Shown piece by piece: positions 5,350 through 63,190 of a stretch of DNA of 64,000 nucleotides. The stretch comes from Acidobacteriota bacterium. GTDB lineage: Bacteria; Acidobacteriota; Thermoanaerobaculia; Multivoradales; UBA5704. Positions within the stretch are counted from its first letter, which is position 1. Every line of letters starts with the position of its first letter. A program made the translations under genes and the position numbers. Under the pieces are notes generated by a model, which did no database searches, was not told where the DNA came from, and worked only from the letters and a program-made list of their open reading frames with translations. Location: positions 106,657 to 170,656 of the forward strand of contig JAXDKG010000051.1 of NCBI GenBank assembly GCA_034667225.1. Direction: 5' to 3'.

Positions 5350-6015
5350 GTGGCGTTGAAGACCGGATTGGAAGGCAAACCCTGGTATTACGGCCTGGGC
5401 ATCGGGCTCGCCCTCGGGGCGGCGATCTTCGGCGTCGTCAACTGGCAGGTGCTCACCCCGATGAGGGACCAGCTCGTGGCCGGTGAGCAGCAGCTCTCCG
5501 AGCTGCAGAACAAGATCCAGGAAGGGCGGGCGGCCAAGCAGCAGCTCCCCAGGTTCCGCGAGGAGGTCCGCCAGCTCGAGATGGAGCTCGACAAGCTCCT
5601 GCGCATTCTGCCGGCGCGGCGCAACACGCCAGACCTCCTGCGCCGCATCCGCTCCCTGACCGAGCAGGGCGACTTCGCCATGCGGCGCTTCACCCCCGGC
5701 CAGCTTTCCGACCGGGAGTTCTTCAGCGAGTGGCCGATCGCGGTCAGCGTCGACGGCGGGTACCACAACCTCGCCCTCTTCTTCGACCGCATCAGCCGCT
5801 TCTCGCGCATCATCAACATCGAGGACCTCACCATCACCGCCCTGTCCGGAGCGAACGGAACCCACACCCTGTCGGCGAACTTCAATGCCAAGACGTTCGT
5901 CTACAAGGAGGCACCGCCGCCTTCCGCGACGCCGGCCGCGGCGCCGGCCGCCGCCGAACCCTCGGCGATGGAACGCGCCCGCGCAGCCCAGGCCCAGGGA
6001 GGAGGACCGGAATGA
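5350..6015 (+). CDS. pilO: type IV pilus assembly protein PilO
   Basis: 221 aa, N-terminal TM, coiled coil; GGAGGG RBS before GTG; synteny. Confidence 0.7.
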   Translation: MALKTGLEGKPWYYGLGIGLALGAAIFGVVNWQVLTPMRDQLVAGEQQLSELQNKIQEGRAAKQQLPRFREEVRQLEMELDKLLRILPARRNTPDLLRRIRSLTEQGDFAMRRFTPGQLSDREFFSEWPIAVSVDGGYHNLALFFDRISRFSRIINIEDLTITALSGANGTHTLSANFNAKTFVYKEAPPPSATPAAAPAAAEPSAMERARAAQAQGGGPE

Positions 6016-6563
6016 AGAACCACATCCGCGCCAGGATCCTCCTGGCCTGCCTCCTACTCCTGCCGGGGCTCGGCGCCCTTGCGCTCGCCCAGGCCCCGCA
6101 GTCTCCTCCTCCGGCAACTCCGCCGCCGGCAGGCAACGAGGATGGCTTCCTCGGTGCGCCGACGCCGGACACGGGCGACATCGACGAGATCCTCGAGGGC
6201 GAGGAGGAGGTCCTCTCCGGCAGCGGCGGCTTTACCTACGATCCCGGCAACCGTCGGGATCCCTTCAAGTCCCTGCTCACCGGGCCGGAGAAGGCCGAGC
6301 AGCACGGACCCCGGCCGGAGGGCATCCCCGGGCTGCTGATCGACGAGATCCAGCTCCTCGGGATCTGGCGTACGCCCCGCGGCTACGTGGCCCAGATCAG
6401 GGCTTCGAACAAGAGCTTCCTCCTGCGAGAGGGAGACCAGCTCTTCGACGGAGACGTGGTGACCATCCAGAAGAACGAAGTCGTCTTCAAGCAGCAGGTT
6501 CAGGATCCGACCGCCCTGAAGCCGTTCCGCGAGGTGGTCAAGAACCTTAGTCCCGCCCGGTGA
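6012..6563 (+). CDS. pilP: type IV pilus assembly lipoprotein PilP
   Basis: ATG at 6012 overlaps the pilO stop (ATGA); signal peptide MKNHIRARILLACLLLLPGLGALALA; Pro-rich linker and C-terminal beta domain; synteny. Confidence 0.65.
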   Translation: MKNHIRARILLACLLLLPGLGALALAQAPQSPPPATPPPAGNEDGFLGAPTPDTGDIDEILEGEEEVLSGSGGFTYDPGNRRDPFKSLLTGPEKAEQHGPRPEGIPGLLIDEIQLLGIWRTPRGYVAQIRASNKSFLLREGDQLFDGDVVTIQKNEVVFKQQVQDPTALKPFREVVKNLSPAR

Positions 6564-31135: not shown

Positions 31136-31210
31136 GCAAGGCTAGCTCAGCCAGGTAGAGCACCAGACCGTTAATCTGGCATCCGAAGGTTCGAATCCTT
31201 CGCCTTAGCA
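31136..31210 (+). tRNA. tRNA-Asn (anticodon GTT)-like; possibly degenerate
   Basis: hand fold: D-arm GCTC-AGCCAGGTA-GAGC, anticodon stem CCAGA/TCTGG with loop CCGTTAA (GTT at 31170-31172), variable loop CATCC, T-arm GAAGG-TTCGAAT-CCTTC; acceptor pairs only with a bulged A in the 3' strand, position 33 is C, and no CCA is encoded. Confidence 0.6.
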
Positions 31211-57297: not shown

Positions 57298-58392
57298 ATG
57301 CGGTTCCCGACGTACCTGAAGCTCGGCTTCGTGCTGGTCCTGCTCCCTGCTACCGCCATGGCGGGCACGGTGAGCCTTTCGAATACGAACAAGAAGGCGG
57401 AGAAGCGCTGGACGGCGGAGCGCTATGCCGCGGCCCGGCCGCTGCCCATGCGGCAGGTCGATTCCGACATCGATCCGTTCCCCGCTGCCCTGGAAGAGAC
57501 GGAGTCGGCCCCCGGGAGCCGTTCCGCGGCGGGCCGGGCGCCGATGGCCGGAGTCCGCGCCGACTCGTCGAACCGGCTGTTCGACGCCCGGGACCGCGAG
57601 CTGGCCTCGATCTTCGGCGAGGACCTCGATTCCATCGCCGAGCCGGCTTCGGGCAGCGGCGGCGGCTATTTCACCAGCTCCCGGCTCGTGCCCGAATCGG
57701 CCGACGAGAGCTATCCCTACTCCACCGTGGGCAAGCTGTTCTTCACCATTCCAGGCCAGGGGGATTTCTACTGCTCGGCGGCCGTGATCCGCAATCGGGT
57801 CATCGCGACCGCGGCGCAGTGCATCCACAGCGGCACCCCCAGCCCGGGCTTCTACGACGACTTCGAGTTCGTCCCGGTCTACCGGGACGGCACGGCGCCC
57901 TTCGGCATCTGGGCCTGGGAGTACGTGACCGTGTCTTCGACCTGGACGAGCGGCAAGGGCAAGCTTCCCCATGCCGCGGATTTCGGGCTGATCGAGCTCG
58001 AGGACCGGGTGGTCAACGGCGCGCTCCACACGATCGGCGACATCGTGGGCTACCTGGGCTATGCGACCCAGCGCCTGCGCCCGAACCACGTGCACATGCT
58101 CGCCTATTCGAGCAGCCATGACGGCGGCGAGATCGTCCACCAGGTGACCGCGAAGGATCACAAGACGGCGAAGCCGACCAACGTCCTGTACGGCTCCGAC
58201 ATGCGCGCAGGCTCGGCCGGCGGACCGCTGATCCAGGATTTCGGCGACGACCCGGACCTGGTGAGGTGGGTCGGCGCACTTTCGACCTTCAACAGCTCGA
58301 CCTCGGTGAAGCTGCAGGGGGCTTCCATCCCGGACACCCGCTTCACGAGCCTGCTCAACGACGTCTGCGCCCATCGGGGCGGGAACTGCTGA
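57298..58392 (+). CDS. secreted trypsin-like (S1 family) serine protease homologue with non-canonical catalytic motifs
   Basis: 364 aa; signal peptide; S1 fold signatures, but ATAAQCIHSG where TAAHC is expected and GSAGGPL where GDSGGP is expected. Confidence 0.6.
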   Translation: MRFPTYLKLGFVLVLLPATAMAGTVSLSNTNKKAEKRWTAERYAAARPLPMRQVDSDIDPFPAALEETESAPGSRSAAGRAPMAGVRADSSNRLFDARDRELASIFGEDLDSIAEPASGSGGGYFTSSRLVPESADESYPYSTVGKLFFTIPGQGDFYCSAAVIRNRVIATAAQCIHSGTPSPGFYDDFEFVPVYRDGTAPFGIWAWEYVTVSSTWTSGKGKLPHAADFGLIELEDRVVNGALHTIGDIVGYLGYATQRLRPNHVHMLAYSSSHDGGEIVHQVTAKDHKTAKPTNVLYGSDMRAGSAGGPLIQDFGDDPDLVRWVGALSTFNSSTSVKLQGASIPDTRFTSLLNDVCAHRGGNC

Positions 58393-58403: not shown

Positions 58404-59339
58404 CTAGCCGATGTCCTGCTTCCGCAGGGATTGATCGATCATCACCGCCGCGATGTTGCCCGTGCCCATGGCCACAGCCACCTGCTGGGTCATGGGCCGG
58501 ATGTCTCCCGCGATCCAGACTCCCGGAACGTTCGTATCCCCTCGTTGCGACTTCGGCTGCACGTGATGGCCGGTCGAGGCCATTTCGATGCCGAGCTGTT
58601 GCGCCAGGTCGGTCCGGCCCACGGCGGGGCTCGAGACGAAGAAGGCTTCGGCATTCAGCGTGCGGCCGTCCTGGAGCTCGAGGCCGGTGAGCATCTTGTC
58701 CTCTCCCACCAAGCGCTGAATTTTTCCGGGGATCACCTCGATCCCTTTCTCTCTCAGTTTCTCAGCGTGGCGTTCGGGCAGGCCGGGCTCGGTCGTGGCG
58801 AGAACGCGCAGGCGGTCGGTGTAGCGCGAGAGGCCCAGCGCCATGCCGGCTGCACTGTCCGTCGAGCCCACTCCGATCACGATCGTGTCCTTGCCCCGCA
58901 CCTCGGGCGCCTCGCAATCCGAGCAGTAGAAAAGGTTTCCTTTGCCTGCGTAGTGGAAGCAGGGGGTGAAGTCGCCGTCCACGAGCGGATGGTAGCGGGC
59001 CACGCCGGTCGCGAGGAGCAGCGTGCGGCCGCGGAAGGTCTCGCCCTTTTCGCCGGTGAGGAGGAAGTCCCCGTCGTGCCCCTCGGCCTTCACGATATTG
59101 GCGCGGCGGACCTCGGCGCCCATCTCCTTGGCCTGTTCCCTCAAGCTCTTCTGGATGTCGATACCGCGCACATGAGGCATGCCGGGCACATTGTGGAGCT
59201 GCTCCAGGGTGAAGAAGAGCGGGCCGCTGACGCGGTCGAGGACCAGCGTCTTGCGGCCGTGCCAGGCGAGGTGGAGAGCCGCCGTGAGCCCGGCCGGCCC
59301 GCCGCCGACGATCAGGGTGTCGTAGATCGTGTCGGTCAT
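58404..59339 (-). CDS. FAD/NAD(P)-dependent oxidoreductase of the thioredoxin-reductase family
   Basis: 311 aa; FAD motif IVGGGPAGLTAA; NAD(P) motif; CSDC redox motif. Confidence 0.7.
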   Translation of the reverse strand: MTDTIYDTLIVGGGPAGLTAALHLAWHGRKTLVLDRVSGPLFFTLEQLHNVPGMPHVRGIDIQKSLREQAKEMGAEVRRANIVKAEGHDGDFLLTGEKGETFRGRTLLLATGVARYHPLVDGDFTPCFHYAGKGNLFYCSDCEAPEVRGKDTIVIGVGSTDSAAGMALGLSRYTDRLRVLATTEPGLPERHAEKLREKGIEVIPGKIQRLVGEDKMLTGLELQDGRTLNAEAFFVSSPAVGRTDLAQQLGIEMASTGHHVQPKSQRGDTNVPGVWIAGDIRPMTQQVAVAMGTGNIAAVMIDQSLRKQDIG

Positions 59340-59350
59340 TTGGACGAAGT

Positions 59351-60283
59351 TTATCGCAGGCCGGATTGGAGCGCTTCAAGCTCCTTCAGGATGGGTTCGA
59401 AGCCGGCGAGGCGTCGATCCCGGTCCTTGACCAGGCAGGCGGCGATCAGGGCGGAGAGCCGGGGATCGTACTCGGGGTTGAGCTCATGGATCGGCCTCGG
59501 ATCCTCTTCCAGGAGCCGGCGGGAGACCTCCGGGAAGCTGGTGGCGGCGAACGGGCGCACGCCGGTGAGCAGCTCGTAGGCCAGGACGCCGAAGGAGAAG
59601 ACGTCCGCCCGGGCGTCCACCTGCTCGCCGCGGAACTGCTCGGGGGAGACGTAGCCGAGCGTGCCGATGGCCACCCCCTTGGTCGTGAGGTTCAAATCCC
59701 GGTCGAGCAGCTTGGCGAAGCCGAAGTCCATGAGCTTGACGGAGCCGTCCGGCAGCACCCGCACGTTGCGCGGCTTGACATCGCGGTGGAGGACGCCCTG
59801 GGAATGGGCGTAGGCCAGCCCGCGGGCGATCTGGAGGAGCACCGCGGTCCGCTCGCGGAGCGTCATCGGGTCCCCCCGCTTGATGAAGGCGCTCAGGTCT
59901 TCGCCTTCGAGCAGCTCCTGGACCAGGTAGGGGAAGTCGCCCTCGGACCCCAGCTCCAGCACCCGGGTGACGTTCGGGTGCTGCAGGGCCGCGGCGATCT
60001 GGGCTTCGAGCAGGAAGCGCCGGCGGAGCTTCGGATTGGTGCTCGTGCAGACCTTGATCGCGACGTCGGCATGCCGCTCGGGGTCCCACCCTCTGTAGAC
60101 CACGGCCACGCCGCCGGTGCCGATCCGCCGGATCAGGTCGTAGCGGCCGACACGGTCGCGGCCTTCGAGGGGATCGGAGAGGCGTTCGCGCAAGGTGCGA
60201 CGAGTGTAACGAATCCCCGGGGCGATTCGCCCGAGAAAGTGCAGGCAAGCGGACGGGCTGCCCTGTAAAGAGAACTGATTCAA
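59351..60283 (-). CDS. serine/threonine protein kinase
   Basis: 310 aa; IGTGGVAVVY…AIK, HRDVKPRNV, DFG, GTLGYVSPE. Confidence 0.85.
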   Translation of the reverse strand: MNQFSLQGSPSACLHFLGRIAPGIRYTRRTLRERLSDPLEGRDRVGRYDLIRRIGTGGVAVVYRGWDPERHADVAIKVCTSTNPKLRRRFLLEAQIAAALQHPNVTRVLELGSEGDFPYLVQELLEGEDLSAFIKRGDPMTLRERTAVLLQIARGLAYAHSQGVLHRDVKPRNVRVLPDGSVKLMDFGFAKLLDRDLNLTTKGVAIGTLGYVSPEQFRGEQVDARADVFSFGVLAYELLTGVRPFAATSFPEVSRRLLEEDPRPIHELNPEYDPRLSALIAACLVKDRDRRLAGFEPILKELEALQSGLR

Positions 60284-60310
60284 CCCCCCTGTCTTGTGAA
60301 AGGAGTCGAC

Positions 60311-60514
60311 ATGCCCGAGCTGAAGAGAAAGGGAGAAGCGGGAGTGCGCGAGCTTCGCCTCGCCCTCGATTCAAGAACCGATTTCAAGGAAGTCGTAGGC
60401 ATTCTGGAGCGGGTTCTGACCATCAAGGACCTGCCCGGCATCAAAGGCTGTGCCCCCTGCCTGTCCGGCCTCGAGAAGCTGGTCATCCAGGACCTCGTCA
60501 CCAACCCACAGTGA
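60311..60514 (+). CDS. candidate RiPP precursor peptide (67 aa) for the adjacent MNIO/DUF692 enzyme
   Basis: AAAGGAG RBS 7 nt before ATG 60311 (track lists GTG 60296); MPELKRKGEAGVRELRLALDSRTDFKEVVGILERVLTIKDLPGIKGCAPCLSGLEKLVIQDLVTNPQ; only 2 Cys, in a GCAPC motif; ends 42 nt before the DUF692 ATG. Confidence 0.5.
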   Translation: MPELKRKGEAGVRELRLALDSRTDFKEVVGILERVLTIKDLPGIKGCAPCLSGLEKLVIQDLVTNPQ

Positions 60515-60555
60515 GCGCAGCCCGTCCGCGCGCCTCAGTCTTTGGAGGAGCAAAC

Positions 60556-61458
60556 ATGGATCGCATCCCATCGCTCGGCATCGGCCTCGCCTACCAGCCC
60601 GCCCTGCGCCCCTACATCGAGGAGAAGCGGGACACGTTCGACTACGTCGAAATCGTCCCCGACCTGTTGTGGACTGACTTGGGAGCCGGCAAGACGCCGC
60701 GCTACGTAGACGACGAGGAGGGGCTCGCGTTCCTCCGCCGCTGGGCGGATGGCCGGCCGGTGATCCCCCATGGAATCGGACTGTCCATCGGCACCGCCCA
60801 CCGCTTCAACCGCGACCATCTGGGCCAGGTGGAGAGGTGGTTCGAACGGTTCGGGTTCCCGTGGCACAGCGATCATCTCGCCTACAACCTTGCAGAGCAT
60901 GGGATCGACGAGATGAACGTCGGAGTGACGATGCCGCTGCCGCGCGACGAGGAGACGCTGGAGTCGCTGGCGCCCCGGATCGCCGAGGTGCAAAGGCGGC
61001 TGCCGGTGCCGTTCCTGCTGGAGAACAACGTCTATTTTTTCGAGATGCCGGGCGAGGAGATGAGCGACGCGCAGTTCCTCAACGCCCTGTGCGCGAGGAC
61101 CGGCTGCGGTCTGCTCCTCGACCTCCACAACGTCTACTGCAACAGCGTCAACCATGCTGCCGACGCCTTCCGGCTCCTCGACGAGCTGGACATGGGCCGC
61201 GTGGTGGAGATCCACGTGGCGGGCGGCATGGAGCACGAGGGCTGGTGGCTCGACGCCCACTGCGGACCGCTGCCCGATCCTGTCTGGTCGCTCCTCGAAT
61301 ACGCCCTGCCGCGCTGCCCGAACCTGGGCGGCGTCACCTTCGAGATGCTCGGCTCCTGGTTCGTGGACATGGGGAGCGAGCGCCTGGAGAGGGAGCTCCT
61401 GAGGTTGCGGGAGCTCTGGCACCGGTACCGTTGCGCGCCGTTGGAGCAGACCGCGTGA
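60556..61458 (+). CDS. DUF692/MNIO family protein (MbnB/TglH-like multinuclear non-haem iron oxidative enzyme)
   Basis: GGAGGAG RBS 5 nt before ATG 60556 (track GTG 60511 would overlap the precursor); N-terminal MDRIPSLGIGLAYQPALRPYIEE…FDYVEIVPD; C-terminal VEIHVAGG…GWWLDAHCGPLPDPVWSLLEYAL; both are hallmark DUF692 patterns. Confidence 0.75.
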   Translation: MDRIPSLGIGLAYQPALRPYIEEKRDTFDYVEIVPDLLWTDLGAGKTPRYVDDEEGLAFLRRWADGRPVIPHGIGLSIGTAHRFNRDHLGQVERWFERFGFPWHSDHLAYNLAEHGIDEMNVGVTMPLPRDEETLESLAPRIAEVQRRLPVPFLLENNVYFFEMPGEEMSDAQFLNALCARTGCGLLLDLHNVYCNSVNHAADAFRLLDELDMGRVVEIHVAGGMEHEGWWLDAHCGPLPDPVWSLLEYALPRCPNLGGVTFEMLGSWFVDMGSERLERELLRLRELWHRYRCAPLEQTA

Positions 61459-62060
61459 GCGCTGCGGTCTTCCAGTCCGCGTTGGCTCGCTTGGTAGTCG
61501 ATCCCGATTTCCGGGACGGCGTTCGCGGGCGCGGGGCCGAGGCCCTTCCCGCAGAGCTGTCGGACCTGGAGCGGGAGCGTCTCCTGGCCGTGGCCGTCGA
61601 TCGCGGACTGGATATCACCCGCACGCTGCACGTCGGTTTCCGTCTGGCCAAGCTCCTGGCGTGGATTCCCCTGACCTGCGCCGTGCTCGGCCGCGAGGTC
61701 CGCATCCGGGAAGTGGGAGAGTTCTGGAAGAGGCGCCTGCCGGTGAGCTTCTACTATCTGGAGGAGGCCGTGGCCTTCTGCGACTACATTCTGGAGCGGG
61801 CGGGGGAGGGGCTCGAAATCCCCTACCTGGAGGAGGTCGCGGCCTATGAGCGCGCTTCGCTGGAGCTGCGTCGAGCGCGGCCGGCGGGCGAGGAGGCTGC
61901 TCCCCAGACGGTGGGGTTCCTGCACGACCCCGAGGCCCTGTTGGGAGCGCTGGCGCGGGGGGAGGAGCTCGGAGGCTTGCCCGAAATGCCGTGCCGGCTG
62001 GTGGGGAGGCGGGTGGAGGATGGGGTGGAGTGGGGCTTTTACAGCCGCCACCAGTCGTAG
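61455..62060 (+). CDS. DUF2063-like partner protein of the MNIO enzyme (MbnC/TglI-like)
   Basis: GTG start overlapping the DUF692 stop (GTGA); 201 aa; N-terminal VFQSALARLVVDPDFRDGV resembles the DUF2063 N-terminal region. Confidence 0.5.
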   Translation: MSAAVFQSALARLVVDPDFRDGVRGRGAEALPAELSDLERERLLAVAVDRGLDITRTLHVGFRLAKLLAWIPLTCAVLGREVRIREVGEFWKRRLPVSFYYLEEAVAFCDYILERAGEGLEIPYLEEVAAYERASLELRRARPAGEEAAPQTVGFLHDPEALLGALARGEELGGLPEMPCRLVGRRVEDGVEWGFYSRHQS

Positions 62061-62521
62061 GCCTGTTGCTCAGGATCCCAGAAGATGTGGAAGGCGTCGC
62101 ACTGGTCGTCGTGGAGGTTGATCCCCGGCTTGGCGGGGGACCCTTCCTCCTCGATCTTCTCCAGGTCGATCGTGGCCTCGCGGGAGCAGAGGGCATCCTG
62201 CGTGCCGTCCCAGGGGAACCCCAGGGTCCAATGCCGGCAGGAGTCCCCGACCGGACCGTGCACGATCCCTACGACGAGCCGGTTGCCCCGGATGCCGGTC
62301 AGGGCGTAATCCTCCGTCCCATCCTGGTTCAGGTCCGCCTCGAGCAGGCTGGCGGGGTCCCACTCCGTATCCGGCTCGCGCTGCCGCAGGACGTCGAGGG
62401 CCGCCATGCCTTTCGCCGGAGGCCGCGGGGGAGTCTCCGGGCCGGAGGGCGGACGCGTGCCGACGCAGCCGAGGAGCCCCGGCAGGGCGAGCGTCAACAG
62501 GATGCGGACCGCGGTCTTCAT
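62039..62521 (-). CDS. lipoprotein of unknown function
   Basis: 160 aa; signal/lipobox LALPGLLGCVGT; 3' end overlaps the DUF2063 gene convergently. Confidence 0.5.
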   Translation of the reverse strand: MKTAVRILLTLALPGLLGCVGTRPPSGPETPPRPPAKGMAALDVLRQREPDTEWDPASLLEADLNQDGTEDYALTGIRGNRLVVGIVHGPVGDSCRHWTLGFPWDGTQDALCSREATIDLEKIEEEGSPAKPGINLHDDQCDAFHIFWDPEQQAYDWWRL

Positions 62522-62533
62522 CGCCGGAGGATC

Positions 62534-63190
62534 TTACTGCCGATCGAAACGCTCGATACGCTCCTGGATCTCACCGGTGATCTTGCGGAGAGAGGCCATG
62601 TCAGTGGTGCTGAGGTGCTCCTTCAGCTCCTCGAAGAGCGGCTCGACCGGCGGCCGGTAGTCGTGCATCAGGGTCGCGATGTCACCTTCGTAGAGCGCGA
62701 CGCGGGCGAAGTTCCCCTGGCGATAGAGGGAGGGAAGGGCGTACAGCTTGAGGAGCAGCAGGCCCTCCACCGTGGCGCAGGGGATCTCCCGTTCGACGAA
62801 ACGCTGGGTCGTGGCGTAGCGCCGCCTGACCTTCTCGAACAGCGGATTGCTGGTCAGGAGGAGGTCGATCTGGAGGCCGTCGAAGGTGCCGCGCGCGAAG
62901 TCGTCGTCCTGTTTATCGATCCGGATCTCGGGCAGCTTCTCCAGGGAGGACAGCGCCATGATGAGGTCGATGTCCTCAGTGTTGCGGCCTTCCACGTACT
63001 TGAGGAGGGCGATGCCTCCGACGAGGAGGTAGTCGGTCCGCCGTTCCCCGAGGAGGATGAAGAGACGGCTCACCGCCTTCAGCAGATCGTCGCCTTGCAC
63101 GGCACCTCCGCGCTTGCTTCCGAAGTTGAAGAGGACCGCGTTGCGGACGACCTTGCCGATATGGACTTCCCGGGTCTCAGCGGTTCTCAT
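62534..63190 (-). CDS. nucleotidyltransferase-fold protein (minimal pol-beta-type NTase, AbiEii-like)
   Basis: 218 aa; LLVGGIALLKYVEGRNTEDIDLIM = hG[GS]…[DE]h[DE]h NTase motif. Confidence 0.45.
   Translation of the reverse strand: MRTAETREVHIGKVVRNAVLFNFGSKRGGAVQGDDLLKAVSRLFILLGERRTDYLLVGGIALLKYVEGRNTEDIDLIMALSSLEKLPEIRIDKQDDDFARGTFDGLQIDLLLTSNPLFEKVRRRYATTQRFVEREIPCATVEGLLLLKLYALPSLYRQGNFARVALYEGDIATLMHDYRPPVEPLFEELKEHLSTTDMASLRKITGEIQERIERFDRQ

Follow-up and report, generated by a model that had tools for sequence, protein, structure and literature searches.

Most characterized multinuclear non-heme iron oxidases (MNIOs, the DUF692 family) act on cysteine (PMC13056109). The chemistries obtained from new substrate families comprise oxazolone-thioamides, 5-thiooxazoles, beta-carbon excision, hydantoin macrocycles, ortho-tyrosine and nitriles, and new MNIO substrate families have nearly always given unprecedented peptide chemistry when tested. 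Antoine et al. 2025 (PMC12452194) stressed that many minor MNIO precursor types remain to be identified, and further substrate families of this kind would be expected by specialists. The locus described here lies in a stretch of 64,000 nucleotides from an Acidobacteriota bacterium (assembly GCA_034667225.1, contig JAXDKG010000051.1, positions 106,657 to 170,656 of the forward strand), hereafter called the window. An earlier note, made from the letters of this DNA, had proposed a novel system for a peptide made by ribosomes and modified after translation (RiPP), consisting of three co-directional genes for a small Cys-containing protein, a DUF692 protein and a DUF2063-like partner. All three genes are present where they had been placed, both in the sequence and in the list of open reading frames (ORFs), and they form an unusually clean cassette, spread widely through an under-studied phylum and apparently cytoplasmic.

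Several described systems resemble this cassette in part. Bufferin (BufABC) and oxazolin (HvfABC) systems have the same gene order, with the precursor followed by the MNIO and a DUF2063-type partner, and they yield a small protein retained over most of its length, in which Cys is converted to a metal-binding heterocycle, a likeness to the product proposed below. Their precursors, however, carry Sec or lipoprotein signal peptides and DUF2282 or EGKCG features, and the systems include true PF09836 partners and frequently DoxX; the cassette has none of these. The bufferin BUF_6/12Cys signature was unmatched by the window peptide and 32 relatives, and no DUF2282, EGKCG or MbnA features were found in the 67-residue protein, as had been claimed of the first and last of these. 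The TglHI/pearlin system of Pseudomonas syringae shares with the cassette the fold of the TglI partner (a helical domain and a RiPP recognition element, RRE) and that fold only. TglH acts on a C-terminal Cys appended by a PEARL ligase and excises its beta-carbon, whereas the Cys pair of the cassette is internal and ribosomally encoded; no PEARL ligase domain was found among the scanned window neighbors and three genes only are conserved, although no dedicated PEARL/LanB search was made. ChrHI/DybH systems (chryseobasin) have a highly conserved two-Cys motif of the same spacing, sometimes inside a larger protein, but the cassette differs from them in enzyme subfamily, kind of partner and motif register, and its motif is internal with a conserved tail of 14-17 residues. 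ApyH acts on a C-terminal Asp (aminopyruvatides) and is accompanied by P450 and radical SAM neighbors, neither of which is conserved beside the cassette, and the cassette likewise lacks the MbnA features and the copper-uptake, TonB or MATE genes of the methanobactin system MbnABC.

The candidates nearest in kind are the signal-peptide-less 'adjamnio' precursors of Antoine et al. 2025 (PMC12452194), which fall in the same category as the cassette protein insofar as they lack a signal peptide, carry a Cys motif and are encoded upstream of an MNIO and a PF09836-less partner of TglI fold. One of these, adjamnio-7, is described as CxxC with a representative from Novilysobacter spongiicola. It was compared with the cassette peptide by descriptors only ('CxxC' and no signal peptide, both of which fit), and by this comparison homology is neither shown nor excluded. 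The named representative of adjamnio-7 is gammaproteobacterial, whereas all taxonomically named cassette loci belong to Acidobacteriota or Actinomycetota. Full-text literature searches returned no description of this small-protein family. No match to Pfam or NCBIfam was found for the window peptide, nor to Pfam, NCBIfam or PDB sequences for any of 32 diverse members. In line with the earlier claim of an undescribed substrate class, the cassette appears to represent an unnamed substrate family for a known enzyme class, although it may be the same family as adjamnio-7.

The candidate substrate gene was assigned to positions 60311..60514 of the forward strand on the evidence of the ORF list, homologues, profile matches and the ratio of nonsynonymous to synonymous substitution rates (dN/dS), and encodes a protein of 67 amino acids, MPELKRKGEAGVRELRLALDSRTDFKEVVGILERVLTIKDLPGIKGCAPCLSGLEKLVIQDLVTNPQ. 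A GTG at 60296 in the same ORF would give 72 amino acids. Because the homologues begin with MPELKRK or MAELKRK and outside gene callers also choose the 67-residue form, the ATG at 60311 is likely the start of the gene. A Shine-Dalgarno-like AAAGGAG was read from the sequence at 60299..60305 (+); the earlier note had this motif right, and the spacer of 7 nt that it gave is actually 5 nt. The protein contains only two Cys residues, C47 and C50, both in the GCAPC motif as had been noticed, with C50 at 17 residues before the C-terminus rather than about 20. No hydrophobic N-terminal stretch is visible by inspection, with no signal-peptide tool applied, which agrees with the claimed lack of a signal peptide. 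The N-terminus is charged, as described earlier; the label of 'leader' given to it is unproven, given that a body of about 50 residues is conserved and no protease is linked. The codons of G46-C47-A48-P49-C50-L51-S52-G53 (60446..60469, +) are the predicted modification site, based on conservation in the 32 members. The protein ends in NPQ, its relatives end in R or G, and it is identical to an NCBI entry from a metagenome-assembled genome (MAG), 'Acidobacteriota bacterium, QOH06_4878'.

Loci containing this gene were gathered by way of the peptide, from a scan of species-representative genomes (n=20) and a metagenome scan with a different motif variant (n=30 more); the remaining loci came from contig look-ups of further peptide variants and of two MNIOs from Blastocatellia/Pyrinomonadaceae. 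In total, 68 motif ORFs were present in 67 loci. An MNIO gene followed within 400 nt downstream for 61 of the 62 motif ORFs that had at least 300 nt of downstream sequence, a count that does not represent 61 independent events, many of the loci being short metagenome contigs and several being near-duplicates. With five loci that had been fetched through the enzyme left aside, the linkage was 56 of 57 peptide-anchored occurrences. Of the 47 cases, of any origin, in which the sequence continued for 1500 nt or more downstream, 46 had the partner. In both phyla the conserved small ORF stands directly upstream of the MNIO and the same partner while the surroundings change, and the keeping of this gene order across two phyla and at least 11 motif variants is decisive despite the near-duplicates. 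The linkage is near-obligate, and by this evidence the 67-residue protein, the MNIO and the partner are a real three-gene unit. The cassette was found in Thermoanaerobaculia, Holophagales, Bryobacteraceae, Ca. Solibacter, Blastocatellia/Pyrinomonadaceae and Actinomycetota, the last including Nocardioides sp. LML1-1-1.1 and Paeniglutamicibacter psychrophenolicus CC174; close relatives of the window proteins are annotated as Thermoanaerobaculia. The small ORFs upstream of the two Blastocatellia/Pyrinomonadaceae MNIOs carry GCPGCRSGIDR and GCPTCRSGFDR.

The sole exception to the linkage is a second peptide copy in one locus (L023), 2.1 kb from a complete cassette. This copy belongs to an inverted duplication of 328 nt (L023:3442-3769 and 5858-6185, 92% complementary) that copies the peptide gene and its upstream region. 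A 369-aa ORF stands behind it in place of an MNIO, and ORFs of 180 and 219 aa lie between the two arms.

Conservation within the small-protein family is concentrated on the Cys loop and extends to either side of it. Among 27 homologous clusters PGIxGCAPCxSG..VI is invariant, and a profile search of 1.84 billion representatives matched 41 small-protein clusters. The 32 diverse members all share C47, C50, S52 and G53 and conserve G46, P49 and D55 to 90% or more, giving the consensus ...F..IV..L...LT.P..PG..GC.PC.SGLDR.VIE.... All 11 motif variants of the 67 loci keep C-x-x-C-x-S-G, mostly as GC[A/R/D]PC[L/R]SGLD[R/K]. Variation is seen in the 10-15 residues at the N-terminus and in the final 6-8 residues, and the body of about 50 residues is conserved throughout, on both sides of the Cys motif. 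With a dN/dS of 0.09-0.46 against six relatives, the gene is, by this measure, under purifying selection. An AlphaFold (AF2) model of the small protein, with a predicted local distance difference test score (pLDDT) of 62, shows a strand (residues 14-19), a helix (25-36), a poorly defined Cys loop and a second strand (56-61); the invariant C, C, S and G fall in the loop that is modeled least confidently.

Two departures from the common form of the small gene were observed. In two Pyrinomonadaceae loci (L030 and L031:5445-5810) the homologue has 121 aa: a long N-terminal extension rich in Lys and Gly, KKGGGGGSKKGGTRGG...KKGGSKKGG, and a repeat of Gly, Thr and Ile, VGTIAGTVGTIAGG, precede its conserved body. 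In a Blastocatellia MAG (GCA_049590935.1, L029:5583-5882) the peptide gene, encoding ...GCPGCRSGIDRIVFEDQVINRVK, is absent from the public annotation, which leaves a 735-nt 'gap' upstream of the MNIO gene. The precursor gene has therefore been missed by at least one public annotation, and under-calling of such small genes may be part of the reason that the family has no curated model.

The second gene of the cassette (60556..61458, +) encodes the MNIO of 300 aa, identified by its PF05114 match and by alignment of its ligands. Its ATG at 60556 is preceded by GGAGGAG and begins 41 nt past the peptide stop, downstream of the small ORF as the earlier note had it, with a gap one nucleotide short of the 42 stated there. 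The protein carries the N-terminal LGIGL...DYVEIVPD and C-terminal EIHVAGG...DAHCGPLPDPVW patterns that had been quoted for DUF692. The DUF692 identity was supported by a match to PF05114 (MbnB_TglH_ChrH) over residues 9-256 with an E value of 4.5e-59 (200.3 bits against a cut-off of 25). Neither of the two computational outcomes that the earlier note had named as refuting, the lack of a significant PF05114 match and a small ORF not conserved or not adjacent in related genomes, was observed, and its interpretation is in essence supported. In the HMMER alignment, residues H72, H107, E156, D189, N192, H220, D233, H235 and E263 correspond to the TglH iron ligands H71, H107, E151, D184, N187, H216, D229, H231 and E258 (ligand list from PMC10880893), so that all nine are conserved in the window enzyme. 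The solved structures nearest to it by sequence are 3bww and TglH.

Scores against the curated NCBIfam models were all below the respective equivalog cut-offs: BufB (NF050167), the best, gave 162 bits against 310, HvfB (NF003818) 142 against 360, ApyH (NF050151) 140 against 400, ChrH (NF050165) 64.8 against 600, and MbnB (TIGR04159) 21.4 against 325. By these scores the enzyme is outside all curated NCBIfam functional subfamilies. Its own clade is large, with 1706 clusters at E <1e-20, of which the best 120 show 54% identity or more, with Pyrinomonadaceae and Blastocatellia as the source of many. An MNIO that matches the window protein residue for residue is encoded on Ga0467041_0000082, a metagenome contig from JGI, as well as on a Logan contig (L001 and L002), and the tested neighbor genes there are also 100% identical to the window. 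A protein of 502 aa (P0250) was considered as an MNIO-partner fusion and rejected: after about 80 partner-like residues its distal half is Arg/Ser/Pro-rich low complexity, the probable cause being a frameshift or read-through in the metagenome contig.

The third gene (61455..62060, +) encodes the partner, a protein of 201 aa with an N-terminal helical DUF2063-like domain and a C-terminal strand, helix and hairpin, as assigned from its fold and its orthologues. Its GTG at 61455 overlaps the MNIO stop (GTGA), an overlap already pointed out in the earlier note, by which it is translationally coupled to the MNIO gene. The DUF2063 assignment made there rests on fold and on 12 of 21 diverse orthologues that touch PF09836 weakly (best E 1.2e-5), but the window protein itself has no match to Pfam, PF09836 included, and among NCBIfam models matches only HvfC, faintly (E 0.015). 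There are 56 homologues, unannotated, and a precomputed PF09836 match is listed for one of the 56. A fold comparison was needed because the partner-family profile gave only noise against PDB sequences. In the orthologue-based AlphaFold model (pLDDT 88.9), eight helices lead into a strand, one more helix and a hairpin; this C-terminal part may be read as a short RRE-like domain. A Foldseek search of PDB with the model returned TglI as the sole significant match (E 5.7e-5, probability 1.0), at a sequence identity of 11-16%, and the fold also agrees with that of the DUF2063 prototype NGO1945 (3dee). From these models and the weak orthologue matches the partner appears to be DUF2063-like.

Antoine et al. 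2025 (PMC12452194) described as PME-type 2 a class of partner proteins with a DUF2063-like structure that is unseen by the Pfam model and paired with signal-peptide-less precursors. The window partner has these properties, being encoded directly after the MNIO, without a PF09836 match, and having an NGO1945/TglI-like structure. Partner length varies among loci, from 139 aa (L032:7132-7551) and 178 aa (L036:7390-7926) to about 200 aa in the window, and the C-terminal RRE-like part is seemingly shortened in some lineages (L032, L036), as described for PME-type 2 proteins. One partner orthologue matched PF14407 (Frankia_peptide, a ribosomally synthesized peptide family) with an E value of 6.6e-4, an isolated match that is probably noise.

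On this evidence we favor, as probable although well short of assured, a reading in which the MNIO and its partner oxidize loop Cys residues of a small, signal-peptide-less, uncleaved cytoplasmic protein, the three genes being a self-contained maturation cassette. The 300-residue MNIO would pair with the 201-residue TglI-like partner, whose C-terminal RRE-like strands would hold the 67-residue protein, probably through strand pairing with one of its two strands. The flexible loop G46-C-A-P-C-L-S-G53 would thereby be placed in the iron site, where the enzyme, with O2, would oxidize one or both of C47 and C50. A four-electron oxidation per Cys, at -4 Da each, would give a sulfur-bearing ring such as a 5-thiooxazole or oxazolone-thioamide, and such a Cys-derived heterocycle would create an N,S metal-binding site. 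This particular chemistry is put forward by analogy and tentatively, with rather more doubt than confidence, because it is the commonest MNIO chemistry on Cys and because the nearest curated relatives of the enzyme are BufB and HvfB. Given the lack of a signal peptide, the conserved body and the lack of any linked protease or exporter, the modified small protein most likely stays uncleaved inside the cell and has a housekeeping-type role, such as metal or redox buffering, rather than being a secreted antibiotic.

Several observations weigh against this reading. Because the enzyme scores under every equivalog cut-off, chemistry is not transferable to it from any characterized MNIO, and the sole basis for an intracellular location is that no signal peptide is visible and no export genes are linked. 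A folded and fully conserved small protein without a cleavage site is an unusual RiPP precursor, and its model is weak (pLDDT 62) and unfit for fold searches. The near-duplication among loci lessens the weight of the linkage counts, and the CxxCxxG spacing of the loop recalls the CPxCGxG of ChrA, whose chemistry is quite different.

A variant of the favored reading concerns the chemistry at the same site. The C-x-P-C-x-S-G loop might undergo a novel MNIO reaction, for example one using Ser52 and Gly53 together with both Cys residues, with the product carried on the uncleaved cytoplasmic protein of about 7 kDa. We regard this as unlikely, though it would be of consequence: if true, it would be the first MNIO cofactor or metal site known to be borne by an intracellular protein, widespread as a housekeeping-type trio in soil Acidobacteriota and Actinomycetota.

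ChrH/DybH-like chemistry is less probable again. Both Cys residues of C-x-x-C-x-x-G would then be joined as a thioether macrocycle with backbone rearrangement (hydantoin-type, -4 Da overall). The C-x-P-C-x-S-G motif has the CxxCxxG spacing of the ChrA motif, and the Ser and Gly after its second Cys are invariant; in ChrA-type precursors, with their conserved CPxCGxG, both Cys residues are consumed and two residues after the second Cys are involved. Motifs of the ChrH family can also sit within larger proteins (PMC13056109). The enzyme, however, falls far below the ChrH cut-off (64.8 bits against 600) and, at 300 aa against a model of 363 positions, lacks the ChrH C-terminal helical bundle. The partner is TglI-like, neither a DUF1772 protein nor absent as in ChrH systems, and the Pro and Gly registers of CPxCGxG and CxPCxSG differ.

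Rather than being modified, the small protein could be an accessory, a CxxC carrier of metal or redox equivalents that loads or reduces the iron site, the true substrate being encoded elsewhere or not being a peptide. CxxC motifs are classically associated with redox and metal functions. The protein is conserved over its whole body, with a predicted strand-helix-strand fold, and no leader-cleavage machinery is linked to it. Nevertheless, the gene just upstream of the enzyme encodes the substrate in every characterized MNIO system, partners of the type seen here recognize peptides, no conserved gene nearby could supply another substrate, and the invariant residues lie in the loop, outside the secondary-structure elements. 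We consider an accessory role improbable on these grounds.

Equally poorly placed is a conventional secreted RiPP, in which the N-terminal residues (about 45) would be a cleaved leader and export would be by genes elsewhere, possibly, in this lineage, the MacB-type ABC genes about 3 kb downstream. The N-terminus varies in length and composition; MacAB-like genes are syntenic in Thermoanaerobaculia, and in one lineage an M28 peptidase gene stands directly upstream on the same strand. Beyond single lineages, however, no peptidase or transporter is conserved with the cassette. The 32-member alignment contains no Gly-Gly or other conserved cleavage motif ahead of the Cys loop, and conservation flanks the Cys motif on both sides, unlike a division into leader and core. 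A chance origin of the small ORF in GC-rich intergenic sequence, with the MNIO and partner as the only real genes, has practically no probability left and is refuted by the conservation data: GC-rich genomes do yield many spurious ORFs, and one public annotation omitted the gene, but its amino acids are conserved across two phyla with a dN/dS <0.5, it has a strong Shine-Dalgarno sequence, and the motif is present in 67 of 67 loci.

If the favored reading of an intracellular, metal-binding small protein is correct, the idea of the periplasmic 'bufferin' would extend to the cytoplasm. The cassette would offer a clean, minimal three-gene substrate family for MNIO chemistry, with a sharply conserved two-Cys motif, a TglI-type partner and no signal peptide. 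The Acidobacteriota, among which the cassette is common, are a phylum dominant in soils and difficult to culture, but it also occurs in culturable actinobacteria.

Genes around the cassette were examined as possible parts of the system. In an all-against-all clustering of ORFs from 16 distant loci, no protease, exporter or second tailoring enzyme was conserved; the shared families were the trio itself and overlapping out-of-frame ORFs, and one upstream ORF was limited to three related loci. Searches by tblastn with the window neighbors, including a 364-aa secreted protein, found them only in the window's own Thermoanaerobaculia lineage. Elsewhere the cassette is flanked by genes for isocitrate lyase, SIR2, M28 peptidase, glycosyltransferases and acyl-CoA dehydrogenase. 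Because the flanking genes differ everywhere, the kinase and the lipoprotein were placed outside the unit. The kinase, the thioredoxin-reductase-like flavoprotein, the lipoprotein, and the AbiEii-like, thioesterase and ArsC-like genes were all rejected as system parts, being syntenic only in the window's Thermoanaerobaculia lineage. In two loci (L032 and L033:3907-5940) the peptide gene is directly preceded, 60 nt away and in the same orientation, by a gene for a 677-aa Peptidase_M28; it occurs in this lineage only and may be a processing enzyme particular to the lineage, or a coincidence.

Within the window, the Ser/Thr kinase gene that adjoins the small gene was confirmed (Pkinase, E 1.2e-48) and is divergent, as the earlier note had described, but the gap of 27 bp given for it depends on a TTG start at 60283 and becomes 117 bp with the start at 60193 chosen by outside callers. 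The kinase is already missing in one related locus (L003). A convergent lipoprotein-like gene of 160 aa with the lipobox LLGC (62039-62521, -) overlaps the 3' end of the partner gene by 22 nt, in agreement with the overlap claimed before. The thioredoxin-reductase-like flavoprotein (58404-59339, -; Pyr_redox_2, E 3.9e-26) and the peptide gene are divergent. The flavoprotein gene adjoins the cassette in the window's Thermoanaerobaculia lineage, even in the kinase-less L003, and is absent from other Thermoanaerobaculia loci (L011-L018) and from all other clades. A 218-aa protein (62534-63190, -), syntenic in related Thermoanaerobaculia, has a weak match to the AbiEii / DUF6036 nucleotidyltransferases that is below the cut-off (E 5.8e-4). 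The 364-aa protein (57298-58392, +), conserved in close relatives and otherwise unannotated, is hydrophobic over a stretch at its N-terminus and faintly resembles trypsin-like proteins around a conserved 'AAQC' (E 0.02). Promoter and terminator scans of 59900-62700 returned no sites and are uninformative for this phylum. Rfam and ARAGORN gave a single match in the 64-kb window, a tRNA-Asn (GTT) at 31136-31209 (+).

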